DNA of 64,000 nucleotides. Origin: a bacterium. Lineage in GTDB: Bacteria; Patescibacteriota; Patescibacteriia; JACPHY01. The notes below the pieces were generated by a model. The model was given only the letters and a program-made list of their open reading frames with translations, was not told the origin of the DNA and made no database searches. The stretch covers positions 18,196 to 82,195 of the forward strand of contig JAUSKG010000022.1 in assembly GCA_030647005.1 (NCBI GenBank), read 5' to 3'. Position 1 is the stretch's first letter. Each line of letters starts with the position of its first letter. Positions 1 to 42,506 of this stretch are shown here, piece after piece. The position numbers and the translations under genes are program-made.

Positions 1-1367
1 TGCTCCCGCGTCGTGATCCACACAGAGCTGCGCGAGGAGCGGCCGAAGTGCCGTCCATGATTCCACCACGTGAACGTGCGGGAGGAAGCCGTACATATTG
101 TGCAATCCGAATGAGATGACCGGCACACCGAGCACTGCGGATTCAAGGCCGAGCGTCCCAGTAATCACCGCAACCGCACGCGCGCCACGCGCGACGTCGA
201 GCGCATACGCGTACGGCGAGAGCATGATGACATTCGGAATATCGAAAAGCGTCGCGTAGAAATCCCGCGGACGCCGCCCGATTGCAGGGAGGTGCTCTTT
301 CACGACGAGTCGCACACCCGCGGGAAGATTCTTCGCAAGGAATTCAATGCATGCGAGCTGCTCGTTCATTTCGGGACTCATGAGTCCCACGGACGATTCT
401 GGCTCCACATGGAGCGGAAAAAAAACATACGCCATACCCGCAAGTGCCGAAGCATCCGCGAGGGGCATCCGCATGAGACGATGGAAATCCGCGCGGACGC
501 GCGCAAGCGCACGCAACTGCTCTCCAAGGTGGTAATTGCCCATCGTCACCACCCCGCGAACACGCCGATACACTGCATGCCGAATCTGTATCCATGCCTT
601 TTTCACCAGTGCCCGCAATGACGCTTGCCGCGCGAATGACCGATAGTACGCGTCGGTGAACGGAATGCGTCGCATCGCAGCGAGCGCATCATCCGTCACC
701 ACCGCAGCCGCCTCCGCATCGCTCATCACCGTGTACCGACTCGCAATCGCCGGCACCGCAAGATACTCATCCACGCCCCACCCGTGATATGACTGGTAGT
801 ACATCAGAAAAAGCGTTCGCGTAGGAATGCGGCGGTGCCGCGCAATGGCCACACACAACTTGCCGAGCACACTCGACGTGGTACCAATAATCAACGAGGG
901 CGCGACGCGATCGAAGTACTCTTCCCAGAACTTCGCCGCACGATTAAAAAAATTGATGGATCTTTCGTACGTTGCCTGATCGCTCAACCGCGAGCGCGCA
1001 TGACCTGGCCCCGCCGCAGCAAATCCCCGCCCAAGGTGGCGATCCGCCTGGAGCGCATCGGTCGCGAGCAGGCCATAGGTGGTCTCATGCTGACGTGCAC
1101 GCTCGTAGGCGACCGTCTCGGATTCATCCACGCTGCCGTACGCAAGAAAAAAATGATGTACGGTGGTGTATGAATCGATCACTCCATCAACGTCCTGTCG
1201 CTTCCAAAATGCAACACTCGCATCATTCGTCGTCACGAGGTGAATGGCTGCACCATGGCGGCGCTTGAGCTCCCGCGCAAGCGGCACCCAGAGCCACTGC
1301 TGGTTTGTGTAGCCCCAGATGACAATACTACGAAGATGTACGGGGTGCCGCTCCTCATGATACTGCA
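1..1367 (-). CDS. KpsC/KpsS-like (Capsule_synth family) polysaccharide biosynthesis protein, 3'-truncated at the window edge
   Basis: Open minus-strand frame from ATG ~1367 to position 1, with no stop in the window (absent from the ORF track for that reason). Translation begins MQYHEERHPVHLRSIVIWGY... and contains LVVKEHLPAIGRRPRDFY, resembling the K-x-H-P motif region of KpsS/KpsC beta-Kdo transferases. Confidence 0.5.
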
Positions 1368-1377
1368 TAGATGCGCA

Positions 1378-1623
1378 TCACTCGCTCGCCGATGTCGCCG
1401 CACGCTGCGCAAGCGTCGCCCATACTATCGGGTACGACACCATCGCGATGATCTCGGCATCCGTGAATACGACTCCATACCGCTGCTCAATAGTGGTGAC
1501 GAGCGATAAGTGACGCAACGAATCCCATACCGCAACCGTTTCCATCGCGGTCGCCGTACCGATATCCGCCACGTCAACCCCGAGCACCGATGCGAAAAGC
1601 TGTTTAAGTTCTTGTTCCTGCAT
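1378..1623 (-). CDS. acyl carrier protein (ACP-like, ~81 aa)
   Basis: MQEQELKQLFASVLGVDVADIGTATAMETVAVWDSLRHLSLV... is a phosphopantetheine attachment site (D-S-L). The true start is the internal M of ORF 1378..1836 and overlaps the end of the upstream FkbH-like gene. Confidence 0.7.
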   Translation of the reverse strand: MQEQELKQLFASVLGVDVADIGTATAMETVAVWDSLRHLSLVTTIEQRYGVVFTDAEIIAMVSYPIVWATLAQRAATSASE

Positions 1624-3448
1624 AGTGTACGGTGACGTACGGGACCGAATTGATGGTATCTGACGTGCAATCCAATGCGTACCGACGGGCACCGTCGTAC
1701 ACATCCACCCGCATGAACCCGAGACGGTCGTAAAAATCGGCGGCAGGCGCGTTCTTCGCGGAGGAGACGTATGAAGATCGCACCAGTCGCACCCCTTCCG
1801 CGCGAAGCACATCAACGATACACCGCGCGAACGCATATTCCAATGAGCGACCGATCACGCGACAGCTCATGAGGAATGTGTCGAAGTCGGCAACGTCACG
1901 GTCAATCCGTACAATACAGCATCCCGTCACTCCATACTCGCCGAACCGATCTGCCGCGTCGAACGTAAAGCACCGATACGCGGGATTGGCAACAAACGAC
2001 GTTATCTCGCCTTCCGTGTAGCGCTTCGTCGTGCAATTGAATTGGTTCGTTTTCTGAGTAAGCTGCACCATGCGTGGAATCAGCCGCGCGTCATCTACAC
2101 GCACAACGATGCGGAGATCAAGCGATTGCAGAAATTGCTCCGTGCTGACAAAGGACTGCTGTGCGACATTGCGCTGCTCCTCTACACGATACTGCTCCGT
2201 TTTCTGCGTATCCTCTATCGTCACCAAGCGACGATCGAACAACCGCGCAACTGCACGCATGCGTTGTGGATACTCGTGCAGCGCAAGAGGCACCTGCACC
2301 GCCGTCACTTCCGGGCACACCGCACGCACATGTGCAATCTCCACACTCGAATCGTCAATAAATACAACGCTCTCTAACCCCACATGGAGCGTCGAGGCAA
2401 TCGCGCGAAGGTTCGTCACTTTATCCTCCCAGTTCACCAGCTTCGCGGCAATATGTTCATCCCGCAGCACCATGTGCGGGTGTGCCCGAAGCACCGCATC
2501 GACATCTTCAGGATTGTTCTTGCTCGCAAGTGCGATGAGTACTCCACGGCGCTCAAGTGCGCGTGCGAGGTACTGTACCTCTGTATACATCGCACCGTGT
2601 GCAGTCGCAGGATCAAGCGTAATACCATCCACACCGTCCTCCCCCACCGCACCACCCCATAACGTACCGTCACAATCAAAAACGATGACCTTCTTCACAT
2701 CGCCACGCATGGCCCGAATCATTGGCACGAGACGCGCTGCATACGCATGAGCGAATGTCGGTGTATACGGTGCCAATGCGGAAGCGTAGAATCGTCGGTC
2801 GAGGGCGGTCGCGGTCCCAATCTCGGAAAAAATATTATCCACGGACACCGTGACGACATTGGGCAACGCTACGGCAGCAAGGTGCCGATTGAGACGCGCA
2901 GCAAGTTCCTCCAGGCGCCGATCACCTACTACCGCGAGCGAAAAAGCTGTTGCGGTAAACTCATGTACGATCACGAGCGGCACGCGGGCAAGTGACGAAA
3001 GCACCGTATGAAGCGTCTGCTCCGTATGCACTGCCAACGCCTCAACCGCGTCATCGGACATCATTGCAATACGATAGTGAAAACCGCTCGTGAGCCGAGC
3101 GAGCTCCCACCAAAGGATGACGCACGGCACATCACCAATGTGCGCACTCTCCTGCACGAACGCATCGAGACCGCCAGCCCGACATCGCGCAGGCACGCCA
3201 ACAGAGCGTAAATGATACTCGATAATATCAAAAAGCGGAGCAGTGATAATATTGCTCAAAACAGTAATGTCATACGCGCTTGCATCCGTAATCAAACGCC
3301 CGAGCGATCGGTTACGATCCATGAGCGCATCCAACGGAACGAGGGCATCAAATGGCGTGTCTTCATGCATACGAACGCACCGCACGCTGTGCAGTGGTTG
3401 CCTGACGAGCACTGCGAACCCTGTACGCGATCGCGTATGCAATCGCAT
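1604..3448 (-). CDS. FkbH-like HAD-superfamily IIIC phosphatase/acyltransferase (614 aa)
   Basis: KVIVFDCDGTLWGG HAD motif I; size and architecture are typical of the FkbH family. It sits immediately upstream of the ACP. Confidence 0.7.
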   Translation of the reverse strand: MRLHTRSRTGFAVLVRQPLHSVRCVRMHEDTPFDALVPLDALMDRNRSLGRLITDASAYDITVLSNIITAPLFDIIEYHLRSVGVPARCRAGGLDAFVQESAHIGDVPCVILWWELARLTSGFHYRIAMMSDDAVEALAVHTEQTLHTVLSSLARVPLVIVHEFTATAFSLAVVGDRRLEELAARLNRHLAAVALPNVVTVSVDNIFSEIGTATALDRRFYASALAPYTPTFAHAYAARLVPMIRAMRGDVKKVIVFDCDGTLWGGAVGEDGVDGITLDPATAHGAMYTEVQYLARALERRGVLIALASKNNPEDVDAVLRAHPHMVLRDEHIAAKLVNWEDKVTNLRAIASTLHVGLESVVFIDDSSVEIAHVRAVCPEVTAVQVPLALHEYPQRMRAVARLFDRRLVTIEDTQKTEQYRVEEQRNVAQQSFVSTEQFLQSLDLRIVVRVDDARLIPRMVQLTQKTNQFNCTTKRYTEGEITSFVANPAYRCFTFDAADRFGEYGVTGCCIVRIDRDVADFDTFLMSCRVIGRSLEYAFARCIVDVLRAEGVRLVRSSYVSSAKNAPAADFYDRLGFMRVDVYDGARRYALDCTSDTINSVPYVTVHYAGTRT

Positions 3449-3782
3449 GCTGGTCGCAATGAGCCATGCTCACACTCACCGTTATACCCACTGCCGCTGG
3501 ATGGTTGATACGCACCGTCGGCGCTCCACTCGCTCCACGAACAATCTCAATACGTGCAAGAGGTATCGGCTGACACCCAAGAGCACCAAGGGCCTTCACC
3601 ACCGCCTCCTTTGCACTAAACCGCGCAGCAAGACGCTGCGCGGCAGGTTGCTGCGCGTACGCATCCGCAAGCTCCCCCACCGTGAAGATGCGCGCGAGCA
3701 TTCGACCATCACGCGCGCGATCAAGCTCGTAAAACCGCGCAATGGCGACGATATCAACGCCGGCACCAACCTGCGATCGCAC
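3363..3782 (-). CDS. 4'-phosphopantetheinyl transferase (AcpS-type)
   Basis: GAGVDIVAIARF ... FSAKEAVVKALG AcpS motifs. The start is probably the GTG/V about 13 nt after the GNAT stop; the ORF-track N-terminus is likely spurious. Confidence 0.6.
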   Translation of the reverse strand: MRSQVGAGVDIVAIARFYELDRARDGRMLARIFTVGELADAYAQQPAAQRLAARFSAKEAVVKALGALGCQPIPLARIEIVRGASGAPTVRINHPAAVGITVSVSMAHCDQHAIAYAIAYRVRSARQATTAQRAVRSYA

Positions 3783-3792
3783 GGACGTCCGC

Positions 3793-4440
3793 TCAACGTG
3801 TGAGCGGGTCCACTCCTGAAGCGTGCGGAGGGTCCACTCCCGCTTGGTTCGTGGCTTGATGGGCATAATATTCACGATCAAGTAATCCGAAGAGATGGAC
3901 ATCGTGGTAGCTCCCATCTTTAAACACCTCACTGCGCCGCACGCCTTCATGCTGAAACCCAAGTGTGCGGCAGTACAATTGTGCGACTGCCTCTGATAGG
4001 GAACCGCCACCCACTCTGTGCATGTGTAATCCATTGAATGCATGCGCAAGTATGAGTTGGTGGGATTCTACAAAATTGCCAAGGTTACGATGCGTACGCT
4101 CACCAATCACGACCGCAATGGCGCACGTTTGATGGAACCAATCAATCGTATCGAGGGAAATAATCCCGATCAACACCGCGCTCGCTCGGTGCACGATGCC
4201 AAGCTGCAACTTCGTGCGGTTCCCAGCGATCGCCTCACGAAAGTATACACGCTGCGCCTCTCGAGTATTGGGAACATAGCGCTGCTGCATCGCAGCAGTC
4301 GTATCTGGATCGTTGAACCAACGATACCAATTGGTACGATCGATGAGGTCCTCGTCCATCGCGACAAGGTCGATGCTCTTGCCTGTAAGAAACACGTCGT
4401 ATTGTAGAGTATCCATACCAGCAATAGCATTCCTCACCAC
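3793..4440 (-). CDS. GNAT family N-acetyltransferase
   Basis: RimL-like GNAT fold signatures (…AIAVVIGERTHRNLGNFVESHQLILAHAF…). Confidence 0.6.
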   Translation of the reverse strand: MVRNAIAGMDTLQYDVFLTGKSIDLVAMDEDLIDRTNWYRWFNDPDTTAAMQQRYVPNTREAQRVYFREAIAGNRTKLQLGIVHRASAVLIGIISLDTIDWFHQTCAIAVVIGERTHRNLGNFVESHQLILAHAFNGLHMHRVGGGSLSEAVAQLYCRTLGFQHEGVRRSEVFKDGSYHDVHLFGLLDREYYAHQATNQAGVDPPHASGVDPLTR

Positions 4441-5783: not shown

Positions 5784-5795
5784 ACCTACGGAGCA

Positions 5796-6818
5796 CTATC
5801 CGTTCCTCAACACGACTCGTTTCCCATCCTTTTGCGCGCTCTGCTCAAGTGCACGAATCACCATGAGGACGCGGAGTGCATCCTCGCCTGTGCTCACCGG
5901 CACATCCCGCCCCTCAAGGCAATCCACGATGTGCGGGAGGACAGGCGTAAGGAAGCTCCGTGGCGGGCCGACGCGCTTCACGCGCTCGTCGTTGAGCTCT
6001 CGGTAGCTCGAATACTCATCGCTCGCACGGGTGCCGATGATCTCGATGGTCAGCCCCGACTCATGCTTGAGATTCATGCGCCCCTTCTCACCAAAAAAAC
6101 TCATCTCGGAGAGCGAATACTGTGCCGAATCAAAATACTGCAACGCCGCAGTGGCCCCGTCAAATCCGAGCAGCGCATCCACGCGCACATCGTGCGGATC
6201 GCGCGGATACACGGTGCTAGGAACCGCACTCACCCACCGCACGTTCCCAAGAAAATACCGCAGGAGATCAATGAAATGCGTACCCCCATGGTACAGTCCC
6301 TTATCGTACGACGCAACCGCCATGCGCACGGGCCCGAGGAACGTATCACGCACGTATCCGCCGCGGAGATTCTCGCGGAACTTCCGAATCCACGGATCAA
6401 ACCGGCGGCTGTGATTGACAAAAAGCGGAACTCGGTACGTCCGGCAGGCGCGAATGGCCTCGCGCGCCTCCTGCACATCGTGCGCAATCGGTTTCTCGCA
6501 GAGGATCGCCTGTACGCGGTGCTTTGCGGCGAGCCGCACCAGTGCGCAGTGCGATTCCGGGGACGTCGCGATGATGACAATGTCGGGTTGAACGGTCACG
6601 AGCATCCGCGCGATGTCCGAGAAGCGCGGCACATCGGGATAGAGCTGCTTCGCGCGCGCGAGCGATCGCCGATCCGTATCCGCGAGTGCCGCGAGTGACG
6701 TGCGCCGATACATCGTCGCGGCCTGCGCGTGGCTCGCCGGCGCAATACGCAACGGATCGAGCTGCGCACCGAGCCCAATCCATCCGCATCCAATAACCGC
6801 GACCGTATATTTTTTCAT
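5796..6818 (-). CDS. Gfo/Idh/MocA-family NAD(P)-dependent oxidoreductase
   Basis: N-terminal Rossmann MKKYTVAVIGCGWIG; conserved EKP motif (ILCEKPIA). Confidence 0.75.
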   Translation of the reverse strand: MKKYTVAVIGCGWIGLGAQLDPLRIAPASHAQAATMYRRTSLAALADTDRRSLARAKQLYPDVPRFSDIARMLVTVQPDIVIIATSPESHCALVRLAAKHRVQAILCEKPIAHDVQEAREAIRACRTYRVPLFVNHSRRFDPWIRKFRENLRGGYVRDTFLGPVRMAVASYDKGLYHGGTHFIDLLRYFLGNVRWVSAVPSTVYPRDPHDVRVDALLGFDGATAALQYFDSAQYSLSEMSFFGEKGRMNLKHESGLTIEIIGTRASDEYSSYRELNDERVKRVGPPRSFLTPVLPHIVDCLEGRDVPVSTGEDALRVLMVIRALEQSAQKDGKRVVLRNG

Positions 6819-7594
6819 ACCGTGTACCCCACGCGATTGATGTCCGGCTGCTGTGCCGATGTAAAAATCTCGGGGTGCGCATCCGCGAGCGCAAGGACGT
6901 CATCAATGTCAAAACTCGAATCTGTGGAATGGAACCGTTCGTAGATCGCCCGCATCATGCCGAGATCTGCTGGAGTATCAAGGAGGAGCGTAAGTGCGGG
7001 GCGATGGTATTGCGGCGGTGCAGTGTAGCGATAGATGGAAAACGCGTCCGAGTGATTCCGAATGAAGTAGTTCACGTGCTCGAAGTTATCCAGATTGTTC
7101 CGGTGTGGCTCCTCCTGTGCCATCGCATGCGCGCGTTGGAGCGCAGGGAAGCGCACCACCTGCACATCAATACCCTGTGGGAAGGTATCCTCAAGACAAT
7201 TGGAGAGGAAGTCGCACCTCCGTGCAAAGAATGCTGCAACCCCGCGATCAAGCACCATCGGCGAGATACACGGGCAATCCCCCGTCACGAGGACGAGCAC
7301 ATCCGCGCCCGCCGATGCGCCAGCACCAACGACGCGCCCGAGGACATCGGTCTCGCTCCCGCGGAACGTGCGCGCGCCAAACCGCTCCGCGATAGCGATA
7401 ATGGCATCATCGCGTTGCTCGGTGCTCGTCGCCACCACCACTTCATCAATCCGCTGTGCGCGCTGGACGCGCTCGATCACCGCGCCGAGTGCTGGCAACC
7501 CTGGGAGAAGCTCCAGGGCCATCTTCCCGGGAAGTCGCGTCGCGCCCATCCGCGCTTCGATCGTGGCAACAACCTTCGACATACTCACGCGCAC
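6815..7594 (-). CDS. CMP-sugar cytidylyltransferase (NeuA/SpsF-like) 1
   Basis: VVATIEARMGATRLPGKMA N-terminal cytidylyltransferase motif. Confidence 0.7.
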   Translation of the reverse strand: MRVSMSKVVATIEARMGATRLPGKMALELLPGLPALGAVIERVQRAQRIDEVVVATSTEQRDDAIIAIAERFGARTFRGSETDVLGRVVGAGASAGADVLVLVTGDCPCISPMVLDRGVAAFFARRCDFLSNCLEDTFPQGIDVQVVRFPALQRAHAMAQEEPHRNNLDNFEHVNYFIRNHSDAFSIYRYTAPPQYHRPALTLLLDTPADLGMMRAIYERFHSTDSSFDIDDVLALADAHPEIFTSAQQPDINRVGYTV

Positions 7595-9405
7595 GCAGCA
7601 AGAAACAACTGCGCATTGATGACGTTGAACAAAAACTTGCTGGTACTGTTGGGCAGCGGGTTCGCATCCATGAGTTCCGCGACGGCGCGACGATCCACGA
7701 GGTCAAAAATCCGGCCCGGCGCGAGGATCCGCTCGCGAACCGCACCGTCGCGCAGATCAATGAGCGATGCAAGAGAAACGTTGAATCCCTTCTTCTGGCG
7801 ATCAAGCCGCACGCGGTCGTGCAGCGTACCGCGCATGGCCTCGCGGAGCACGTACTTGCCGTACCCGTCACGAATGAGGTGCTCTGCGGGAATGCGGAAC
7901 GCGAACTCGCAGAGACGCGTGTCGAGGTATGGACTGCGGTTCTCCACCGAGTAGTACATCGAATTCAAATCGTCCTCGCGCAGAATCACCGGCACCACTT
8001 CATGAAACAACTCATTGAGCATCCGGTTACGCAGGAGCGAATCGCAAAAGATGTGTTCGCGAAATTCCTCACGGAAGTCCACGGTCACGTACTGCAGGAA
8101 CCGGTCACGTTCATCGTACACATGGCCGCGGAACTGTCTATCGGCACTGTAGAGATCGGGATCCCGCAACAGCGGATTGCGCACCATGGGTGCCACATGC
8201 GTGATGAAATCACTCCGCGCGCGTGCATACGCCGGATGATTTCGCATCTCATAGAGGTGGAGCGGAAAATGATCGTAGTAGCCCGTTACCAGCTCGTCTG
8301 CCGCAGTGCCAGAGATCGCAACGCGGTAGCCGGCATGCGCGATTGCCTCGGACAGGTAGGAATGCACGAAGTATGAAATGGTCGCAATCGGCGCATCGTG
8401 GTACGCAATGAGCTGCTCGAGGCGCTCAAAAAAACCCGGCTGCGGAAACGGGATGGCGGTGTGCACGCTCCCAATATCCGCAACGATTTCCTGAATGTTC
8501 GGCTCCTCATTATAGCGTGGATCGTGATCAATGACGGAGAATGTGGCGACGCGATATCCAAACTCCTTCGCCGCGATGGAGGCAAGTGATGCCGAGTCCA
8601 CACCGCCGCTCAAACAGAACGCGAGCGGAACATCCGCACGGAGACGGATGCGCATACTCTCGAGCAGTCGCGCACGGAATCCCTCCACTGCGTCTGCAAG
8701 CGTCATGTCTTGGAGTGTGCAGTGCGGCTGCCAGTAGCGATACGAACGCACGGCACCATCCGACTGAACAATGACGTTCGTCGCGTAAGGCACCTCGCGC
8801 ACACCCTGAAAAAACGTCTCCGACCCCTTCATGAGCGACTTGTACCCGTTCACCAGATACCGAAGCACCTGCGGCGTATTCACGACGAGACGCTGTCCAG
8901 ACAGTGCTGCAAGGAATTTGATCTCGGAGCCGAACAACACGCCTCCTGTCGTCTCGAGAAGATACAGCGGCTTCTCGCCAAACCGATCACGCGAAAGAAA
9001 CACCGTCTGCGAGCGCGCGTCGTGAATCGCAAACGCCCACATCCCCTCAAAATCATCCACGCAGCGTTCACCGAAGGTGAGGTACGATTGAAGGAGCACC
9101 TCGGAATCGGAAGTCGTACGGAACACGATACCACGCGCTTCGAGGCACTTCCGGAGCTCAAGGTAGTTGTAAATTTCACCGTTGAAAATGAGCGTGCAAC
9201 CCCCGATGGTCATGGGGAGGTGCGCGCGGGGATCGAGATCAATGATACTCAAACGCGTATGGAGGAACACGCACATGCGATCGCGCATAGGCAAGCGCAC
9301 GAAACGCTGCGCGTCCGGACCGCGACGGTGCATGGTTGCCAATGTGGCAACCGCGCGCGTGTCGTCCGGGGGTTGTGTTCCGATGTAGCCGGCGATGCCG
9401 CACAT
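7585..9405 (-). CDS. asparagine synthase (glutamine-hydrolysing)-like amidotransferase
   Basis: MCGIAGYIG N-terminal Ntn Cys; the SGGVDSA PP-loop lies in the central region. Confidence 0.85.
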   Translation of the reverse strand: MCGIAGYIGTQPPDDTRAVATLATMHRRGPDAQRFVRLPMRDRMCVFLHTRLSIIDLDPRAHLPMTIGGCTLIFNGEIYNYLELRKCLEARGIVFRTTSDSEVLLQSYLTFGERCVDDFEGMWAFAIHDARSQTVFLSRDRFGEKPLYLLETTGGVLFGSEIKFLAALSGQRLVVNTPQVLRYLVNGYKSLMKGSETFFQGVREVPYATNVIVQSDGAVRSYRYWQPHCTLQDMTLADAVEGFRARLLESMRIRLRADVPLAFCLSGGVDSASLASIAAKEFGYRVATFSVIDHDPRYNEEPNIQEIVADIGSVHTAIPFPQPGFFERLEQLIAYHDAPIATISYFVHSYLSEAIAHAGYRVAISGTAADELVTGYYDHFPLHLYEMRNHPAYARARSDFITHVAPMVRNPLLRDPDLYSADRQFRGHVYDERDRFLQYVTVDFREEFREHIFCDSLLRNRMLNELFHEVVPVILREDDLNSMYYSVENRSPYLDTRLCEFAFRIPAEHLIRDGYGKYVLREAMRGTLHDRVRLDRQKKGFNVSLASLIDLRDGAVRERILAPGRIFDLVDRRAVAELMDANPLPNSTSKFLFNVINAQLFLAACA

Positions 9406-9409
9406 AATG

Positions 9410-10453
9410 CTACACGGGCAACGAACGCTCCGGCATGCACTCTTCTATACACTGTGGATCCAAAACCGTTCCCGCCACTACGGCACGTCGAAGACGCTTC
9501 CCGATAATCCCAAGCTCCTGCCCTGGCGCAAAAGGTCCCGCGGGGCGCACCCACGTCAGGTGTGCGGCTGACAGCACGATTCCTTCCGGGAGATCTTCTG
9601 CAGCGACTACCGCCCGACGGAATGCGCTCCTACCCACTTCCTCACATGGCTGTGGCACCTTCACGCCGCTTCCCATCATCAACTCTACCGCACGGATGCG
9701 TTCGACGAGTACTCGGATCTCATCCGGAGTTGCGGAGAGCTGATGGTCGCGAAAATCTGAGTAGTCGTGCGCAAGCGTGAAATGCTTCTCGACGATCCGC
9801 GCGCCGATCGCGACCGCTGCAACCGCCGCATCATTCCCCATGGTGTGATCCGAGTATCCGATGGTGGAATGTGGAAATTGCTCCCGTAGCGTCGAGATCG
9901 CCCCAAGATTCGCCTGTCCCGGCGGTACCGGATACGATGCGACGCAATGGAGGAGCGCATGATCTCCAGATACGCCACGCGCCGCCCACGCTCCCTGTAC
10001 GTGAGCGACTGCCACACGGATCTCGTCTACCGTCGCAGCACCAGTCGAAAAAATAACTGGCTTTCCCGTATGTGCGATGACCTCGATCATCGGCAGGAAT
10101 GTCAGATCACCCGAGGCGACTTTGTATGCAGGGACGAGCGCATCAAGAAATGCCGCACTCTCACAATCGAATGGGGTTGAAAGAAAGAGCACGCCCGCCC
10201 GTTGCGCAACAGTAGCGAGATGCCGAAAGTCATCATACGAAAGCTGAAAACGGCGTAGCTGCGCAAGACGCCGCTCATCCGTGCGCGCAACAAGTCGCTC
10301 CGGAACAATGGTCTGAAACTTCACCGCGTCCACTCCTGCGAGAGCGGCGCGACCAATGAGGTCTTCTGCAAGCGCACGCGAACCCTCGTGATTATTGCCA
10401 ATCTCTGCAATCACGAATACACGCGATGCAGTATTGTGATGACCAATCATCAT
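9410..10453 (-). CDS. NeuB/PseI/LegI-family nonulosonic acid synthase 1 (with SAF domain)
   Basis: VFVIAEIGNNHEGS...AGVDAVKFQT motifs. The start was trimmed to the MMIGHH methionine, which overlaps the upstream stop by ATGA. Confidence 0.85.
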   Translation of the reverse strand: MMIGHHNTASRVFVIAEIGNNHEGSRALAEDLIGRAALAGVDAVKFQTIVPERLVARTDERRLAQLRRFQLSYDDFRHLATVAQRAGVLFLSTPFDCESAAFLDALVPAYKVASGDLTFLPMIEVIAHTGKPVIFSTGAATVDEIRVAVAHVQGAWAARGVSGDHALLHCVASYPVPPGQANLGAISTLREQFPHSTIGYSDHTMGNDAAVAAVAIGARIVEKHFTLAHDYSDFRDHQLSATPDEIRVLVERIRAVELMMGSGVKVPQPCEEVGRSAFRRAVVAAEDLPEGIVLSAAHLTWVRPAGPFAPGQELGIIGKRLRRAVVAGTVLDPQCIEECMPERSLPV

Positions 10454-10908: not shown

Positions 10909-10914
10909 AACGTT

Positions 10915-11898: not shown

Positions 11899-11911
11899 AC
11901 GCGCGTCCTCG

Positions 11912-12973: not shown

Positions 12974-12986
12974 ACGAACACAAGGT

Positions 12987-14177: not shown

Positions 14178-14263
14178 AGTGGCGTAGGTACTTGTCCGCA
14201 CCTGGCGCGGGAGCACCAGAGGATCAAAAGAGTGCGCATCATGCGCACTCTCATACAACGCAT

Positions 14264-15328: not shown

Positions 15329-15330
15329 GT

Positions 15331-16038
15331 TCAATGAACGCTGTGGGTGCCCCCACGCTCGCCTTCGGGCACCATCGCAAGGATTTCCTCGTAATGGTAT
15401 GCGGTGTGCGAACGCTCCATCTGCTGCACGATCCGCACGAAGCGCTCCCAATCCTCCACCGTATCCACCGCGAGCTGCGCAGTACTGTTATCGTGCGACG
15501 CGCTGAAGTTCTTGATGCGGAACTCCTCTGGGTGCTGATAATAGTACCGCGTAACATGCTCGCGATCCAACGGATCCGTCATGCGCACATGCGCGCGTCG
15601 GAATGGCTCCGTGCGCACAACCTCCACGGAAACGCCCACGGGAAAACTCCGCGGAAACGTGTTCGTGACAAGATCATACTCGCTACCGCGAAACAATGCC
15701 ACCGCAGTCGAAATGACCGCAGGATCAGTGAGCGGGCTATCCCCGCACACGCGCACGAATGCGTCGAATTCGTGCGCGTCCGCAGCGGCAAAAAATCGCC
15801 CAGCGACGTCCACAAGTGAACCACGGAAGCACGGAATGCTCTTGTCCGCACAGAACGCAGCGATGGGATCATCGCTCGTTTCGTCCGACGTTGCCACGAT
15901 CACACCATCCACGCCGTGCGCAAGTGCAACACGCTCAAGTGTGTACAGAAGCATGGGCTTCCCCCCAAGGTCACGGAGCACCTTCCCCGGCAACCGTTGC
16001 GAGCTCATCCGTGCTTGAACGATGATGCCGATCGTCAT
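15331..16038 (-). CDS. CMP-sugar cytidylyltransferase (NeuA/PseF-like) 2
   Basis: MTIGIIVQARMSSQRLPGKVL motif. ATGA overlap with the upstream methyltransferase. Confidence 0.7.
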   Translation of the reverse strand: MTIGIIVQARMSSQRLPGKVLRDLGGKPMLLYTLERVALAHGVDGVIVATSDETSDDPIAAFCADKSIPCFRGSLVDVAGRFFAAADAHEFDAFVRVCGDSPLTDPAVISTAVALFRGSEYDLVTNTFPRSFPVGVSVEVVRTEPFRRAHVRMTDPLDREHVTRYYYQHPEEFRIKNFSASHDNSTAQLAVDTVEDWERFVRIVQQMERSHTAYHYEEILAMVPEGERGGTHSVH

Positions 16039-16943
16039 ACGTATGTTTGTGGTGCGGCTGGTACCGCAACCCCTTCGGGATAATATGCAACCGTTTCTGC
16101 ATGCCACCGCTCGAAAAAATTCTGCACCGCACGGTAATCGTCGCCAGTCCAAGGGATGGTTTCGTCGACATCGCGCCGCTCCGCGATCATACACAGAACG
16201 TCATGATCAATGTAGCGATTCGTCTGTCGCACCGCGAAGTGCGCAGTAGCGAGCTGTGCCGTGAGCGTCTGGGCGCTCCACCGGAACGCGTGACTATCCG
16301 CAGCACGACCCCCGAGGTAGTAGTGGAGCGGCTTCTTGAATGGGACGAAAATGCGACTGCCCGTTGCCACCACCACCTGCCCACCGGGCCGCAACATCCG
16401 GTGTGCTGCCGCGAGCATCGCGCGCGGCGACTGACAATTCTCCATGGTCCACGCGATGACCGCGATATCATACTGCCCTGCGGATGTTCCGCTTGCCGCA
16501 TACTCCTCAATGGTGCCACGGAAATTGGGAATACCAAGGGCTGTCATGCGCGCACAGTTCGCGCGCGACGGCTCAATACCAAACACGGCGGCTCCGTACT
16601 CCGACTGCCGGAGCATCTCGAGGAATACCCCCTCCCCTGCACCGATGTCGCACACACGCTTCCCCTGCAGCCCCCCGAGCTGCTCCGCCATGAACGCCGC
16701 GACGAACGTGAGCCGCGCCCGCACTGCCGGTAGGAGCGCGGTGTACCCGTTCCCATAAATCTGCTCTGACCACTCATCCGCAATCGCGCCCGCGGAGCGG
16801 CGTTGCTTCACATACACAAACCCGCACTGTATGCAGATATGAATCGGCTGCCCGCCCGTGTATTCGCGCGCATGCGGAACCTCCACGGCATCCGTGGTAC
16901 CACAAATGTCACAGGGAAAATCCATTGGGTCAGATTGGGACAT
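16035..16943 (-). CDS. class I SAM-dependent methyltransferase with N-terminal Zn-ribbon
   Basis: CDICG...CIQCG Cys pairs; VCDIGAGEG SAM motif I. Confidence 0.7.
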   Translation of the reverse strand: MSQSDPMDFPCDICGTTDAVEVPHAREYTGGQPIHICIQCGFVYVKQRRSAGAIADEWSEQIYGNGYTALLPAVRARLTFVAAFMAEQLGGLQGKRVCDIGAGEGVFLEMLRQSEYGAAVFGIEPSRANCARMTALGIPNFRGTIEEYAASGTSAGQYDIAVIAWTMENCQSPRAMLAAAHRMLRPGGQVVVATGSRIFVPFKKPLHYYLGGRAADSHAFRWSAQTLTAQLATAHFAVRQTNRYIDHDVLCMIAERRDVDETIPWTGDDYRAVQNFFERWHAETVAYYPEGVAVPAAPQTYV

Positions 16944-16951
16944 ACATTTGT

Positions 16952-16990
16952 GTCATTGCGAGGGAGTCCGCGACCAAAGCAATCCCGACC
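16952..16990. repeat. half-copy of GTCATTGCGAGG…GCAATCCCG palindromic repeat family (intergenic)
   Basis: gtcattgcgagggagtccgcgaccaaagcaatcccgacc. It shares about 30 of 35 nt with the copies inside leuS. Confidence 0.6.
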
Positions 16991-17082
16991 ACGACCAGAT
17001 GCAGGAGCTACGGCCGTTCCCCACCAATGATATCCAGCATTGCTTCGACGCGCGCAGCCGTGCTCCTCGCAATGACATCGAA

Positions 17083-18252
17083 TTACACTGGCGGAAACCG
17101 CAGCTGCCATTCCCCTCCCTCCTGCTTCCAAATCTCGGCATTTCGGTGCCGGTCAATGAGCGCGGTGAACTCCTGATCCGTGAGGTGGAGGTACGCGAGC
17201 ATGTCCTGGTAGTACCGCGCAGGAAACTCATGATCGTATGCGCGTGCGTGCGCGAGTCCCCGCTCCCGCGTGAGTTGCTTGTTCTGGATCATGCGACTCG
17301 CATCGCGTATCGCGCGGCCAAAACCAAACTTCACGTACTGCAGGTAGTAGTAGAGGTTGTCCGATTTGTCATCCAACGAATCAAAGTCCGTGAATGTTCC
17401 CTCCGTGCGCCCCTCGGCACACGTCTGAAAATCAATCTTATCCTTGATGTATTCGTAATTCTCAAAGCTGCTCCACTTGAAGAAATACGCGAAGTAGTAT
17501 GCGCGCACGCCGACGCGCTGGATGTCCTGGATGGCAGGATACCGATACGGGTTGAGGTCACGCTCCGTCACCACGTCATCCACCCAGTTGCGCGGATCGT
17601 CACCAATTTGATGCTCGATAACCTCGGTAAAATCCCGCACTTTCGCAGAATCCTCACGAAGCACCTTGCCGCCGTACTCGCTCTCGCCGTGCTCGGCGTA
17701 CAAAACGAGCGGGATGCCGTACCGCACCGCGGCCTGTACTGGCGTTGCGTTGATACCCGCATCCCACGCAATCTTATGATTGCCGCGCTCCAGAAAGAAT
17801 CGCCGCGCGAGATGCCGGTGGATACGCTGATCTGGACGAAGGAGATGATGATCAAACCCCGCCTGAATCATCGCCTCGTAGTTGTGCAGACCGACAGCCG
17901 TCGGAAGTTGTGGCGAGAACGTGACGAGGAGCGGATTCATCCCAAACTCATGCTTGAGCTTGTACGCGATGGCACTGCTGTCCTTCCCACCGCTCCACGG
18001 CACGATGCAATCCCACGATCCATCGTCCGCACGGTACTGATCGAGCAACGCGAGAAACTCCGCACGCCGCGCCGCCCAATCAATGCCATCCCACTTCCGC
18101 TCCGCATACCGACATGCATTGCACACGCCCTCTGCATCAAAAACGATGCGCGGACGCGAGTTGGGCATGACGCAACGCGTACAGTACTGAATCGTGCGGC
18201 CCCCATGTGCTGCGATGTCTTGCCGCGTGTGCGATGTGATCGTCATGTCCAT
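17083..18252 (-). CDS. N-acetyl sugar amidotransferase (WbuX/PseA-like PP-loop ATPase)
   Basis: YCTRCVMPNSRP...CNAC Zn-ribbon followed by SGGKDS PP-loop. Start trimmed to MDMTITSH. Confidence 0.8.
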   Translation of the reverse strand: MDMTITSHTRQDIAAHGGRTIQYCTRCVMPNSRPRIVFDAEGVCNACRYAERKWDGIDWAARRAEFLALLDQYRADDGSWDCIVPWSGGKDSSAIAYKLKHEFGMNPLLVTFSPQLPTAVGLHNYEAMIQAGFDHHLLRPDQRIHRHLARRFFLERGNHKIAWDAGINATPVQAAVRYGIPLVLYAEHGESEYGGKVLREDSAKVRDFTEVIEHQIGDDPRNWVDDVVTERDLNPYRYPAIQDIQRVGVRAYYFAYFFKWSSFENYEYIKDKIDFQTCAEGRTEGTFTDFDSLDDKSDNLYYYLQYVKFGFGRAIRDASRMIQNKQLTRERGLAHARAYDHEFPARYYQDMLAYLHLTDQEFTALIDRHRNAEIWKQEGGEWQLRFPPV

Positions 18253-18256
18253 ACAG

Positions 18257-19003
18257 TTACACGCGCACCGAAATCCCCGCCTTCGCAAGGTACGCCTTCG
18301 CGCTATGGATACTCGGCTCCGTGAAGTGATAAATATTCGCAGTGCACACCGCGGACGCATGGCCGTCGCGAAATCCGTCCACAAAATCCTGCCACTTGCC
18401 CGCGCCACCGCACACGAGTACCGGAACGTCCACGGCATCGGCGACGAGCTGGTTCAACGTATTGTCGTAGCCCTCCAATGACCCGTCCTTCTCCATGGAG
18501 GTGATCATGACCTCCCCCGCTCCGCGCGCTTGCGCTTCTCGCGCCCACGCCGCTGGATTGAGCCCTGTCGGTTGCGTCCCACACTCGGTATACACCTCGT
18601 AGGTCCCCTGCGCATTCCGCCTCGCATCCAAAGAAACAACGACGCACTGCGCTCCGTATGCCTGTGCGATCTCCGTGATAAACCCAGGCCGTTGCACTGC
18701 CACCGAATTCACCACCACCTTGTCGGCACCGCTCCGCAGGAGCTGCTGCACATCCTCCATCGTACGCACTCCGCCGCCCGCTGCCAATGGCACGAAACAG
18801 CGCTCCGAGAATTGCTCCACCACTGCAAGAAAATGCTCACGCACACCCAACCCGGGACGGGTGATATCGAGGAGCACCACTTCATCTACAGACCATGCGT
18901 CCACAAAACTCGCCGTGTAGCGGTAGTCCGGTTGAAACTCCTTCGTCCGAAACAGCACGCCGTCATTGAACGTAAGGACGGTGACAACACGATTACGCAA
19001 CAT
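18257..19003 (-). CDS. imidazole glycerol phosphate synthase cyclase-subunit homolog (HisF/WbuZ-like)
   Basis: Full-length HisF-like (beta/alpha)8 signature (…VPLAAGGGVRT…VVNS…). Confidence 0.85.
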   Translation of the reverse strand: MLRNRVVTVLTFNDGVLFRTKEFQPDYRYTASFVDAWSVDEVVLLDITRPGLGVREHFLAVVEQFSERCFVPLAAGGGVRTMEDVQQLLRSGADKVVVNSVAVQRPGFITEIAQAYGAQCVVVSLDARRNAQGTYEVYTECGTQPTGLNPAAWAREAQARGAGEVMITSMEKDGSLEGYDNTLNQLVADAVDVPVLVCGGAGKWQDFVDGFRDGHASAVCTANIYHFTEPSIHSAKAYLAKAGISVRV

Positions 19004-19625
19004 ACGAGCGCGCAGGCATTTGCAACAAAAAATTCTTCAGGAACTGCAATCCATGCTGCTGACTCTTCTCCGGATGAAACTGTGTTGCGACAATGTTTTT
19101 TTGCTGGAACGCGGCCGTGAAACGCGACCCGTACTCGCATTCCCCCACAACGATTGTGGAATCATCGCATCGAATGTGAAAACTATGGACATAATAAAAC
19201 AGCGCGTCGGTAGGAATGCCATCAAACAGCGGGGACTGTTGCGTGCGGATGCAATCGTTCCATCCGACATGCGGCACGCGCAGCCCATCCGGCGGCGCAA
19301 GGCGTACTACATCCGCAGCGATCCATCCCAGTCCTTCATGGTGACCAAATTCCTCACTCGATCGCGCGAAAAGCTGCGCGCCGAGGCAGACGCCAAGGAT
19401 GGGTTTCTGCTGGTGCAAGATGAGATCGGTGAGCGGCTCCACGAGATTACGCGTGCGGAGATTCGCCATGCCATCGCCAAACGCGCCCACGCCCGGCAGG
19501 ATGAGCGCCTCGGCGCGCTGCAGCTCTGCGGGGTCCGCCGTAACGATTGGCACGAACCCTACCCGCGCAACCGCCGCCGCGACCGAACGGATATTCCCGA
19601 GACCGTAGTCAATGATGGCAACCAT
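18993..19625 (-). CDS. glutamine amidotransferase HisH/WbuY-like
   Basis: MVAIIDYGLGNIRSV...GVCLGAQL (catalytic Cys)...FHPEKS. Confidence 0.85.
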   Translation of the reverse strand: MVAIIDYGLGNIRSVAAAVARVGFVPIVTADPAELQRAEALILPGVGAFGDGMANLRTRNLVEPLTDLILHQQKPILGVCLGAQLFARSSEEFGHHEGLGWIAADVVRLAPPDGLRVPHVGWNDCIRTQQSPLFDGIPTDALFYYVHSFHIRCDDSTIVVGECEYGSRFTAAFQQKNIVATQFHPEKSQQHGLQFLKNFLLQMPARSYVA

Positions 19626-19728
19626 ACGCGCACGACGGACGACACCGTATCTTGGACCAGCGTACCGCACGAGCGCGCGCCCGCAAGAGAAACGGACGGC
19701 CCATGAGGAGCCGTCCGTTCAGACACCG

Positions 19729-20637
19729 TCAGAACACAATGAAGATAATTGCGCAGCCCGCGATGCCGATGGCGAACCGTGCGTACACCCCGCGCCCGAG
19801 GCCCTGCGCCTCCTTGAACACGATGAGGCCGACCATGGTCGGAATCACCATTTCCGCGACCTGCTTGATCGGCTGGACGACGGTGATTGGTGCCAGCGAT
19901 TGCGACCACGTCCACATGAATAGTGCAATGGCAATCGTGGAAGCGAGGAGCAGCATACCGCGGATACCGCGCGCATCGAGCGGCGCTCCTGCTTCCGCAC
20001 GTCCGAGGAGGAACCGAATGCTCAACGCGCCGACGTATGACCCAAGGTACCACGCGGCGACGAAGCTCGGCACGGACACTCCCTCGAGCGCAAACACGCG
20101 CATGGCGAAGTGCCCGAATCCCCAGATGACGCTGTACCCCGCGATCCACAGCGCGAGCTGCTTCCATGGGAATGTCGCTGCAGGTACCGCTACACCATCT
20201 GCACCGCGATACCGCGCCACGGAGATTGCCGTGCCGCCAGCGATGGCAACCGCGACGCCGGTCGCAAGCAGTGCAGAGTCGGCGAGGTGCGCATACTCGT
20301 GGAGCACGAAGTACCCGAGTGCCATCGCGATGAAGTCGTCCGCCTGCGTGAAGAGGTATGTCCGACTCACGCTGATGTCCACGGCACGCCATTGACAGTA
20401 CGCGCCCAAGCTGTTCACGAATCCGATGGCACCGATTGCAAGGGTCCATGTCCCGACGATCGGCGCACCCACGATCCACGCGAACAGCACGGCGTAGCAC
20501 GCCGCAAACCCGAACATCCACACCATGCGCCGCGTCCGCGATGGAAGCCCTGTCGCACGCTTGATGAGGATTGGATTCACGACCATCGTGAAGAGTCCCA
20601 ACGATATCGGCAATTGCCAAGGAACCACTTCCATCAC
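19729..20637 (-). CDS. EamA/DMT-family 10-TM membrane transporter
   Basis: About ten hydrophobic helices across two halves. The overlapping 436-aa Arg-rich ORF on the same strand is spurious. Confidence 0.6.
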   Translation of the reverse strand: MMEVVPWQLPISLGLFTMVVNPILIKRATGLPSRTRRMVWMFGFAACYAVLFAWIVGAPIVGTWTLAIGAIGFVNSLGAYCQWRAVDISVSRTYLFTQADDFIAMALGYFVLHEYAHLADSALLATGVAVAIAGGTAISVARYRGADGVAVPAATFPWKQLALWIAGYSVIWGFGHFAMRVFALEGVSVPSFVAAWYLGSYVGALSIRFLLGRAEAGAPLDARGIRGMLLLASTIAIALFMWTWSQSLAPITVVQPIKQVAEMVIPTMVGLIVFKEAQGLGRGVYARFAIGIAGCAIIFIVF

Positions 20638-20702
20638 GCTTCCTCCTTTTCATGCGTTGCACCGCAACACACCAACCAACTATGATACTGCTGGATGCGC
20701 TG

Positions 20703-22295
20703 TCAATCGGACGACGGGAGGAGGTACCGATCGAGAAATGCCGTGTCGGTGGGATCGGCGGGCTGTGCGACCGCATCGCACAGCGCACGCGCATCGAATA
20801 CCACTCGCGCACGATCGTCGCAGGCCGCACGGACGATACGCACGCGCCGCGCAAGGAGCGCGAGCGCATCGGGGAATGGTGGTGCGGGGTCGCCGTCCAC
20901 CAACAGTGCCACTATCGGTTTGGTCGTGCAGAGTGCGATGGGAAACGCGGTGGTGCGCATGCTCCCGAATACGAACGCATCCGCGTGGGTATGCGCGGTG
21001 TGAAAGTCCTCCGCGAGCACCTCGGCGCGCCCATCAAACATCCCTCGCACTTCCGCGAGACGATCTGGGTGCGCCTTGTAGACAACACCGTACCCGGCAT
21101 CGCGGAGTGCTTCGATGATGCGGAGTTCGAGGTCCAACTGCTGGAGCCCAAGCGACGCGGCGGCAGTGTACTTACGTTGTGCGTTCTGCGGAAATCCGAT
21201 GACCATGACGCGACGGATGCGCGCCGCTGCAGGGACCGGGCGCATGCGCTGCCGGATTGCGCGATAGATACCGCTCACGCCCGATACAATTGTGAGCGGG
21301 TTTGGCACGATGGGAAGCCGCGCGCGATGGATGCGACGGCAGAGATCGGCACTCCCATCGGTGTAGGTGACGTAGGTATCCGAGAGCGCGAACTCGGACC
21401 ATGTTGGCATCGCGGTGTTGAAGAGCCCTACGAATCCCCCGTGCGCAGCCGTCATCACGCGCCCGCCACGCTCCCGCACGGCGAGCGCGAGTGCGCGTTG
21501 GCGATGCTGCGTCGCCGATCCAAGCGCAACGTGCGCGACGGCATGGGCTGCAACGAATGCGCGCATCTGCAGCAGCATGCGGACTGCATCCACGAGCATT
21601 GCGTCCGTCCGCGTACGGAGTACATCACGGAACGCATCATCGGTAGGAATCGCGTACTGCTGAGCGATACCGGTACACGCATCCACCAACGACGCGGCAG
21701 CGATGCGCAGGGCCGCGCGTACACCAACAGGACAATCGGGCATCGGGGGAAGCGCGTCGTTGTACAGCGTCCGAACCCACTCCGGGGTGTGCGCGAGGTA
21801 CTCCGCGAGAAGCGCATGCGGTGCTCCTGCAACCCATATCCGACGTTCGGAGCGGACGCGCGCCGCCATCTTCACCGCAGTTGCATTCGCGGCAATTCCG
21901 CGCCCCCATCGCACCAGCCGAACCGCAGGCACCATCCACACGGCGCGCGCGGCACCGACGGATGCCGTAAATGATGCGGCGTGCCCGAGTGCCTCCGCAA
22001 ACCACGCGGCGGCTGGCTGGCACACGGGCTCATGCCCCGCCGCACGCACGCGCACCACCACCGCGCGCGCGTGGAGCATGTGCACGAGCGTGACCGGAAG
22101 CTCGCGCGCGATGAGCAGCGCGGCACCGACATCCCCCGGCGTGGCGGCAATGGCGGATCGCACGGATCCTTCCACTGCATCGGCTAACGCAATAAATTCG
22201 TGGTCCGGGACGGGCCACGAGCATGTCTCGCGCCAGCGATCAACGCCGAATGCTTTCACGGAGCCGATGTCGAGGGGGAACTCGCGGGTTGCCAT
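20703..22295 (-). CDS. KpsC/KpsS-like (Capsule_synth-like) putative glycosyltransferase 2
   Basis: C-terminal VVYKAHPDRLAEV...ADAFVFGSMRTTAFPIALCTTKPIVAL resembles the K-x-HP retaining keto-sugar-acid transferase core. Assignment is weak. Confidence 0.4.
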   Translation of the reverse strand: MATREFPLDIGSVKAFGVDRWRETCSWPVPDHEFIALADAVEGSVRSAIAATPGDVGAALLIARELPVTLVHMLHARAVVVRVRAAGHEPVCQPAAAWFAEALGHAASFTASVGAARAVWMVPAVRLVRWGRGIAANATAVKMAARVRSERRIWVAGAPHALLAEYLAHTPEWVRTLYNDALPPMPDCPVGVRAALRIAAASLVDACTGIAQQYAIPTDDAFRDVLRTRTDAMLVDAVRMLLQMRAFVAAHAVAHVALGSATQHRQRALALAVRERGGRVMTAAHGGFVGLFNTAMPTWSEFALSDTYVTYTDGSADLCRRIHRARLPIVPNPLTIVSGVSGIYRAIRQRMRPVPAAARIRRVMVIGFPQNAQRKYTAAASLGLQQLDLELRIIEALRDAGYGVVYKAHPDRLAEVRGMFDGRAEVLAEDFHTAHTHADAFVFGSMRTTAFPIALCTTKPIVALLVDGDPAPPFPDALALLARRVRIVRAACDDRARVVFDARALCDAVAQPADPTDTAFLDRYLLPSSD

Positions 22296-23329: not shown

Positions 23330-23330
23330 A

Positions 23331-24029: not shown

Positions 24030-24035
24030 ATATGG

Positions 24036-38425: not shown

Positions 38426-42400
<3,975 letters not shown>

Positions 42401-42490: not shown

Positions 42491-42506
42491 CGCGTCGCAA
42501 CGCGCC

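Follow-up and report, generated by a model that had tools for sequence, protein, structure and literature searches.

The window, a stretch of 64,000 nucleotides from contig JAUSKG010000022.1 (assembly GCA_030647005.1), opens with genes that all lie on the minus strand from position 1 to about 37565. Together they form one very large nonulosonic acid (NulO) island, which runs on past base 1 for 6 kb or more (L001), so that more than 40 kb on one strand is given to NulO chemistry in what is probably a genome like those of the candidate phyla radiation (CPR) and the Uhrbacteria. Three NeuB synthases, three CTP_transf_3 cytidylyltransferases, PseB and three DegT aminotransferases (one fused to a class-III aminotransferase) were found in the island, with two GFO oxidoreductases, two formyltransferases, an AsnB/PseA-like amidotransferase, WbuX, HisH-like and HisF-like proteins, a methyltransferase and GNAT proteins. 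Three NeuB synthases and three enzymes that activate sugars with cytidine monophosphate (CMP), together with the decorating enzymes, imply several differently decorated NulOs; formylated, acetamidino, glyceroyl and methylated derivatives could be made. When the minus-strand genes were scanned (1-37565), no glycosyltransferase domain was recognisable besides the two genes considered here, P1 and P2 (Table 1).

Both genes had been proposed, in an original prediction made from the sequence of the window, as relatives of the capsule transferases KpsC and KpsS that might transfer CMP-activated NulOs. Both reading frames and both peptides quoted there were found on the minus strand. The P1 frame starts with ATG at 1368-1366, one base from the predicted 1367, and has no stop through base 1 (456 codons); LVVKEHLPAIGRRPRDFY is P1 from residue 354. 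Its absence from the list of open reading frames (ORFs) had been put down to a gene that runs past the end of the window, which is the case. Full-length P1 is P0001 (Q7S96_02875, 528 aa, 100% identical), and the 72 codons absent from the window were recovered, with the genes downstream, on a Logan contig; the contig and the deposited protein complete P1 at its 3' end. P2 is identical to P0100 (Q7S96_02980), an independent gene call gave the same protein, and VVYKAHPDRLAEV is P2 from residue 404. With the stop-triplet frequency of the window (0.0164), the chance of an open frame is 5e-4 for 456 codons and 1.5e-4 for 530 codons. The nearest named homologues of both proteins are from Ca. Uhrbacteria, Parcubacteria and Omnitrophica.

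P1, for which 99 homologues were found, was placed by family-level searches. PF05159 (Capsule_synth) matched 42 of 47 diverse P1 relatives at E ≤ 0.01 (best E 2.6e-12), so that the predicted PF05159 match held for the family, the score of P1 itself staying below the cut-off (see below). Searched against the PDB, the P1 family profile matched nothing notable except KpsC (E 3.8e-4 to 1.1e-3) and WbbB (E 0.017); neither P1 nor P2 was matched by NCBIfam. The AlphaFold2 (AF2) model of P1 (pLDDT 90) has a glycosyltransferase-B (GT-B) fold of two Rossmann domains, with a predicted full-size N-terminal domain and helical insertions within the 528 residues.

A KpsS1-type reference ORF was found by tblastn of P1 against plasmid records (7.3 Gb; E 3e-9). 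The gene, together with a PseG gene, came from PLSDB records NZ_CP077849.1 and NZ_CP104448.1 (A. baumannii, 3.66 and 4.09 Mb), which are evidently chromosomes, one of them with 45 annotated features. The ORF encodes 480 aa, lies between wzx and wzy just after psaA-F, and carries Y131-E132. It was taken to be KpsS1 or a very close homologue on the basis of this position and of Y131-E132, which agrees with the KpsS1 numbering in PMC12887879. The P1 family profile scored 118.9 bits on KpsS1 over both domains (profile positions 129-437). Elsewhere it scored 29.0 bits on E. coli KpsC, 13.6 on KpsS, 9.0 on WecB, 0.2 on NeuC, -2.3 on PseG and -2.5 on NeuS. BLASTP of P1 against KpsS1 gave 68 bits, with 30% identity over 131 residues of the C-domain only.

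Several motifs of P1 pair with those of KpsS1: DRHLGRGF with DRFLTHDF, PLHVEPESS with PIHFHPESS, NLPAG..LVVKEH with NLPFG..LYVKDH, PNV in both, and ITGTLGLESAVLGVPV with VNSTAGYEALLLGKPV. The common consensus reads DR[HF]L, P-[LI]-H-x-x-P-E-S-S, NLP-x-G...VK-[ED]-H and T-x-G-x-E-A-x-x-L-G-x-PV, where the E. coli proteins have instead QTFND and QVEDD (KpsC) or QVYND (KpsS), plus K-x-H-P. QXXXD supplies a carboxylate-binding Gln and a nucleophilic Asp and is invariant in GT107 and GT99 (PMC10148158, PMC12887879). In the P1 family (n = 47) position 320 is His in 38 and Gln in three members, and position 324 is Glu in all. The K-x-H-P core that had been assigned to both proteins is present in P2 (K-A-H-P-D); P1 has K-E-H-L, without the Pro, and in its family K357 is invariant, H359 occurs in 41 of 47 members and a Pro follows that His in only four. 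P1 is thus, as far as its sequence can tell, a divergent member of the KpsS1 (GT118) lineage within the Capsule_synth superfamily, and not KpsC/KpsS-like in its catalytic motifs. The predicted likeness to KpsC and KpsS was right as to the superfamily of P1 and wrong as to its catalytic motifs.

KpsS1 is a retaining Pse5Ac7Ac alpha-2,6 pseudaminyltransferase which resembles P1 in homology over both domains and in a gene beside a NulO module. It differs in length (480 against 528 aa, P1 having extra helical insertions), in carrying Y131-E132 where P1 has G162-T163, and in its setting: a proteobacterial Wzx/Wzy capsule locus, whereas P1 comes from a CPR-like metagenome-assembled genome and is paired with an ATP-binding cassette (ABC) exporter. 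PF05159 proteins beside NulO modules (KpsS1, KpsS2 and Gtr59 of K loci) were proposed in 2015 by Kenyon et al. as retaining NulO transferases (PMC4487303), and KpsS1 is described as a proven retaining Pse transferase in the paper that cites Walklett 2024 (PMC12887879). The analogy between Kdo and NulOs on which the original prediction was built is sound and was already in the literature, in PMC4487303 and, as far as its citation of Walklett 2024 conveys, in PMC12887879. The transferase idea is accordingly sound for P1 but not new, P1 being a divergent addition to a known lineage.

The same comparisons bear on whether P1 might be a beta-Kdo transferase of the KpsS type; its role would then be to initiate the Kdo-glycolipid anchor of a polymer that depends on an ABC transporter, with no NulOs involved. 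Such an enzyme would suit the PF05159 superfamily and the adjoining ABC exporter gene, and the best NCBIfam matches of the cytidylyltransferase at 15331-16194 were KdsB models (about 70 bits, far under their cut-offs). This is nevertheless very unlikely, given profile scores for KpsS and KpsC so far below that for the pseudaminyltransferase KpsS1, and given that two features of both E. coli KpsS and KpsC, QXXXD and the Pro of HP, are missing from P1. No KdsA, KpsC or KpsE/D homologue was seen among the island genes, and P1-family genes accompany NeuB, WbuX and HisH/F, not Kdo genes. P1 as a true Kdo transferase was rejected on the profile scores.

P2 had no Pfam, NCBIfam or PDB sequence match, either as a single sequence or as a profile. 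PF05159 gave nothing at E ≤ 1 with P2 and nothing at E ≤ 0.1 with 48 diverse relatives, and this outcome, which the original prediction had itself named as refuting it, rules out P2 as a PF05159 protein. No match was found for P2 by tblastn against the plasmid records, nor any sequence match to KpsS1, and its family profile matched none of KpsC, KpsS and WbbB. An exhaustive hidden Markov model (HMM) search recovered 1,566 representatives of clusters at 50% identity at E ≤ 1e-3 (580 at E ≤ 1e-30), compared with which the seven homologues given by a word-index search were a severe under-count. The source names of the seven closest relatives and of 10 sampled clusters were all 'hypothetical protein', and we know of no CAZy family that holds the P2 family.

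Across 48 diverse members, W21, P28, H285, H409 and P410 are invariant, and D9, W27, G277, G286, K407, D439 and R484 are conserved in at least 90%. The segment VVYKAHPDRL is locally near-identical to IVYKPHPDVL of E. coli KpsC. At the strand-loop that carries QXXXD in KpsC, P2 has Q370-N-A-Q-R374 (loop GFPQNAQR), in which position 370 is variable and no acid is conserved (n = 48). The N-terminus is a helical region of about 150 residues with the invariant W21...W27-P28. Faint A-2_8-polyST or Glyphos_transf matches (E 0.007-0.05) were obtained for a few P2 relatives, and Foldseek with the P2 model placed KpsC at rank 24 (E 4.6e-3) and the polysialyltransferase 5wcn at E 0.016, with low TM-scores.

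No similarity between P1 and P2 was detected by BLASTP, and hhalign of small families was not significant; a signal appeared only with the enlarged P2 alignment. With this, hhalign gave a probability of 71-84% (E 4e-5 to 7e-6) for a match of the P2 family to the P1/KpsS1-like family; the alignment covered up to 302 columns and brought the HP motifs of the two families together. Against profiles built from the same loci, P2 reached 1.3% with PseG-like and 0.6% with WecB/NeuC-like proteins, the PseG-versus-WecB control giving 94%; for the P1 family the values were 28% (PseG-like) and 38% (WecB/NeuC-like). P2 is at best a remote relative of the Capsule_synth/GT118 lineage, and its predicted likeness to KpsC and KpsS survived only in that remote form. 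Its motif pattern is unlike those of GT99, GT107, GT118 and GT140 and plausibly marks a new family-level variant of CMP-ulosonic-acid transferases.

The lack of a conserved carboxylate at the nucleophile position, and of a sequence match to any characterised enzyme, would also fit a P2 that binds a CMP- or nucleotide-linked NulO without glycosyl transfer, as a scaffold or carrier in tailoring, as an adaptor for chain length or export, or as a catalytically inactive paralogue. Its flanking by tailoring enzymes (formyltransferase, PIG-L, GNAT, ATP-grasp) and its N-terminal helical region with invariant Trp and Pro residues point the same way. Such a role was nonetheless considered improbable, if worth keeping in mind, since the invariant H-P, conserved Lys, Thr/Ser-Thr loop and invariant N-domain His make up the pattern of an active CMP-sugar GT-B enzyme. 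PMC5420450 and PMC12887879 describe the HP motif. In P0142, a natural protein of 1,079 aa (ENA contig), two P2 modules that both contain YKAHPD are fused in tandem, an arrangement that resembles a bifunctional polymerising transferase.

Gene context was sampled for both families. For P2, 13 genome loci from a narrower 20-sequence alignment were used. A NeuB homologue lay within 10 kb on the same strand in 12 of them, the exception being a 2.8-kb contig. The hosts were Peribacteria, Uhrbacteria, Parcubacteria, Omnitrophota, Nitrospirae, Desulfobacteraceae, Alpha- and Gammaproteobacteria and the cultured Hwanghaeella grinnelliae. In a Ca. Uhrbacteria locus (L008) the gene order of the window is kept from the aldo-keto reductase and DUF218-GNAT genes through NeuB b to P2, which is again last in its module; the second NeuB (c) was not detected there. 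For P1, 36 metagenome loci of at least 8 kb were used, and NeuB was found in 23, WbuX in 20 and HisH/HisF in 17-18, frequently in the order P1-HisF-HisH-WbuX.

A P1-like gene adjoins a P2-like gene in L009, L059, L076, L077 and L099, and in a Parcubacteria genome the two types occur on the same contigs. The adjacent pair of L009 belongs to H. grinnelliae Gri0909 (NZ_SADE01000002) and lies at 8464-9942 and 9914-11581 of that locus. In 24 related loci a fused ABC transporter of the PglK/MsbA type (ABC_membrane+ABC_tran), homologous to that encoded after P1, was found, often adjoining the P1-like gene, and the module of P1-like gene, P2-like gene and ABC exporter recurs across distant phyla. The P1-like protein of H. 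grinnelliae exceeds the PF05159 cut-off (23.6 bits); its gene neighbours encode a sulfotransferase, FemAB-like and AsnB-like proteins and a GT4 enzyme, and the locus resembles those for polysaccharides more than those for flagellin. The proposal that both genes encode CMP-NulO transferases is well supported by this context.

We consider it on balance probable that P1 and P2 are two different GT-B glycosyltransferases, each of which moves a CMP-activated NulO onto a glycoconjugate. A number of points weigh against this. What was observed for the two proteins is fold, homology, motifs and gene neighbourhood, and it is from these that we infer donor, acceptor, stereochemistry and residue roles. 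P1 itself scored only 17.8 bits (window fragment) or 17.5 bits (full length) against PF05159 (E 0.002-0.003; gathering cut-off 20 bits). The Y-E base proposed for KpsS1 is absent from P1, 'VLYENIS' aligning with 'IIGTTSS' at G162-T163 by HMM and MAFFT; in KpsS1 the proposed general base is Glu132 of that motif (PMC12887879). Foldseek with the P1 model returned generic GT-B enzymes on top, chiefly UDP-GlcNAc 2-epimerases, with KpsC outside the top 50 and low TM-scores. The P2 model, also GT-B, is of moderate quality (pLDDT 77), and its best matches were a plant UGT and UDP-GlcNAc 2-epimerases (E 1e-5 to 1e-3). The link of P2 to glycosyltransferases rests on this fold, one short motif and the remote hhalign match, and its position inside biosynthetic operons, not at their edges, would fit a biosynthetic enzyme too. 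Finally, no recognisable PseG or NeuC/LegG homologue was found in the window.

The last points lead to a further alternative, in which P1 and/or P2 is the island's missing nucleotide-sugar hydrolase or hydrolysing 2-epimerase, an analogue of PseG or of LegG/NeuC that releases the hexose for condensation by NeuB with phosphoenolpyruvate. PseG is a GT-B hydrolase with a catalytic His in its N-domain, to which the invariant N-domain His of P2 is comparable; the 2-epimerases matched by both models include the hydrolysing NeuC; and P1, like P2, is encoded inside a biosynthetic operon of a window that has no detectable PseG or NeuC/Epimerase_2 protein. We regard this as quite unlikely. PseG homologues occur with P2-type genes in 7 of the 13 loci and WecB/NeuC-type genes in 3 (either in 9), and many P1-family loci also carry a gene of one of the two types. 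Four P2 loci lack both: L008 of Uhrbacteria (16.8 kb), which is window-like, and three contigs that are short or end-limited. In L010, L012 and L013, homologues of PseB, PseC, PseG and NeuB (with a cytidylyltransferase in L010 and L013) are all recognisable and a P2-type gene is present besides. The hhalign comparisons set P2 far from PseG-like and WecB-like proteins, and the P1 profile favours KpsS1 over NeuC and PseG by more than a hundred bits. P1 and P2 as replacements for PseG or LegG were rejected on the coexistence of PseG/NeuC-type genes and on the profile comparisons.

As NulO transferases, P1 and P2 would attach the CMP-NulOs of the island to a growing glycoconjugate on the cytoplasmic side, and the product would be exported by the fused ABC transporter encoded beside P1, just outside the window; the adjacency of this transporter suggests assembly on the cytoplasmic face followed by export. 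The mechanism of P1 was drawn by homology with KpsS1, KpsC and WbbB (PMC10148158, PMC12887879). CMP-NulO would bind in the C-domain, where H359 of K-E-H may contact or protonate the CMP phosphate and the T-G-T...E409 loop-helix may hold the nucleotide. The invariant E324, in place of the nucleophilic Asp of QXXXD, suggests a retaining double displacement: E324 would attack C2 to give a glycosyl-enzyme intermediate, which the acceptor hydroxyl would resolve with net retention. As P1 has no Y-E, its base may be the conserved E95 or lie in D109-R110-H111. P2 keeps the CMP-type K-x-H-P and the Thr/Ser-Thr phosphate loop. Arg instead of Asp at or beside the nucleophile position, together with the invariant N-domain His, points to a probably different chemistry, possibly direct displacement with inversion; a single displacement (inverting) or another retaining route appears more likely for P2.

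P1 and P2 may be set beside several known systems. The retaining double-displacement beta-Kdo transferases KpsC/KpsS (GT107) and WbbB (GT99) probably share with them a modified GT-B fold, a CMP-ulosonic acid donor and a phosphate-handling His after the second C-domain strand. They differ in QXXXD, which is replaced by H-V-E-P-E in P1 and absent in P2, in a Kdo instead of a NulO gene context, and in the N-terminal Rossmann domain, which in P1 and P2 is full-size and has helical insertions. The tandem fusion P0142 recalls the dual-module polymerising transferase KpsC. Tanf_01245/TFUB4_00887 of Tannerella forsythia, TagB-like transferases of Pse/Leg derivatives, are GT-B enzymes with an HP motif encoded directly downstream of CMP-NulO genes (PMC5420450); they are about 445 aa long, against 530 aa for P2. 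Bacterial sialyltransferases of GT38, GT52 and GT80 have an HP motif, in common with P2, and a D/E-D/E-G motif. No significant sequence relation of these two groups to P1 or P2 was found. PseG and NeuC/LegG are like P1 and P2 in fold and in belonging to NulO clusters, with no significant profile match to P2 and a weak one to P1.

Few transferases of pseudaminic, legionaminic and related acids are known; PMC5420450 called knowledge of them 'scarce', and in vitro characterisation of a pseudaminyltransferase was first achieved as late as 2024. P1 would extend the KpsS1/GT118 lineage into CPR bacteria, with H-x-x-P-E and K-[DE]-H, rather than QXXXD and HP, as the marks of that lineage. The P2 family, at 1,566 clusters, stands as a strong candidate for a second NulO transferase with a mechanism of its own. 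More tentatively, and with somewhat less confidence than an even chance, P2 is proposed to found a new glycosyltransferase family dedicated to NulOs, in which the CMP-binding K-x-H-P is kept, Asp is changed to Arg and the mechanism is probably inverting; acting jointly with a KpsS1-like enzyme and an ABC exporter of the PglK type, it would assemble surface polymers rich in NulOs, the hosts being CPR bacteria, Omnitrophota and several lineages of Proteobacteria and Nitrospirota. Both genes are neighbours in a cultured host, H. grinnelliae, in which the question could be tested directly. The island also means that a CPR-like bacterium with a small genome spends more than 40 kb on decorated sialic-acid-like sugars.

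Table 1. Positions of P1, P2, their motifs and the surrounding genes (window coordinates unless a locus is named; aa, amino acids)
Feature	Position	Strand	Remarks
P1	1..1368	-	First 456 codons of a 528-aa KpsS1/GT118-like GT-B protein; 3' end beyond the window
P1 nucleotide-binding loop and helix (residues 402-417)	118..165	-	ITGTLGLESAVLGVPV; G407, G414 invariant; E409 in 45/47
P1 K-E-H-L-P (residues 357-361)	286..300	-	Aligns with KpsC K-x-H-P CMP-phosphate motif and KpsS1 K-D-H
P1 P-L-H-V-E-P-E (residues 318-324)	397..417	-	Aligns with KpsC QXXXD nucleophile motif and KpsS1 P-I-H-F-H-P-E
P1 N-domain motif DRHLGRGF (residues 109-116)	1021..1044	-	R110, H111, L112, G113 ≥90%; G115 invariant; aligns with KpsS1 DRFLTHDF
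Acyl carrier protein (ACP)	1378-1623	-	Directly upstream of P1
FkbH-like HAD	1604-3370	-	Upstream of P1
Phosphopantetheinyl transferase (PPTase)	3363-3782	-	Upstream of P1
GNAT	3793-4437	-	Upstream of P1
CMP-sugar cytidylyltransferase	6815-7594	-	
AsnB/PseA-like amidotransferase	7585-9405	-	
NeuB synthase a	9410-10744	-	
Second cytidylyltransferase	15331-16194	-	
Methyltransferase	within 15331..19670	-	
WbuX	17083-18438	-	
HisF-like	18257-19003	-	
HisH-like	18993-19670	-	
P2	20703..22295	-	530 aa and stop codon; GT-B-fold protein, unnamed family
P2 D439 and T448-T449	20949..20981	-	D439 in 45/48, Thr/Ser in 48/48; candidate ribose and phosphate contacts
P2 K-A-H-P (residues 407-410)	21066..21077	-	H409, P410 invariant in 48; K407 in 44/48
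P2 R374	21174..21176	-	Arg in 33/48; at or beside the KpsC QXXXD Asp position by hand alignment guided by hhalign
P2 H285-G286	21438..21443	-	End of N-domain strand; H285 invariant, candidate catalytic base
Module with P2 as last gene	22256..31114	-	
Formyltransferase	22256-23329	-	Next to P2
PIG-L, SDR, APH-like, 404-aa unknown, ATP-grasp	between formyltransferase and NeuB b	-	
NeuB b	28156-29226	-	
Cytidylyltransferase c	29181-29963	-	
NeuB c	29960-31114	-	
DUF218 domain fused to PseH-like GNAT	30961-32247	-	
Aldo-keto reductase	31985-32869	-	
348-aa unknown	32945-33991	-	Between PseC-like gene and aldo-keto reductase; 4-base overlap at its start
PseC-like DegT/class-III (Aminotran_3) aminotransferase fusion	33988-36513	-	841 aa
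PseB	36510-37565	-	TIGR03589, 486 bits, over its cut-off
Fused ABC transporter	L001 6579-8378; L099 8152-9978; 23 further loci		Recurs next to P1-like genes

Downstream of P1, the Logan contig encodes the fused ABC transporter (599 aa), a FemAB-like acyltransferase, a GNAT, a PIG-L protein and a GT2 enzyme. The cassette upstream of P1 (1378-4437; FkbH-like HAD, ACP, PPTase and GNAT) is probably an N-glyceroyl side-chain set that uses the glyceryl-ACP route, and may be likened to Tannerella, where the N-glyceroyl NulO is Pse5Am7Gra. An FkbH gene adjoins the P1-like gene in L080 as well. The second cytidylyltransferase, the methyltransferase, WbuX and the HisF-like and HisH-like proteins (15331..19670) would make up an acetamidino-forming set. 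Just downstream of P2, two ORFs on the minus strand overlap, at 19559-20869 and 19729-20637. The former is probably wrong, the independent gene call taking the 19729-20586 frame, and neither product matched Pfam or NCBIfam. PseB and the PseC-like fusion (33988..37565) are the start of a pseudaminic-type pathway. For its hydrolase step one may speculate on the 348-aa protein at 32945-33991 or the DUF218 domain at 30961-32247; the former, examined as a possible PseG, had no Pfam, NCBIfam or PDB match.

Beyond the island, the products of 37575-38423 (citrate-synthase C-terminal domain) and 45252-47282 (ATP-grasp_2+Citrate_bind, CoA_binding+Ligase_CoA) resemble subunits of ATP-citrate lyase or citryl-CoA synthetase, which to our knowledge would be unexpected in a CPR-like genome. 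Directly beyond the island, the protein encoded at 38426-42745 (1,439 aa) carries 14 repeats of the MopE 'putative metal-binding' type (PF11617); it may be a surface protein and a possible target of glycosylation.

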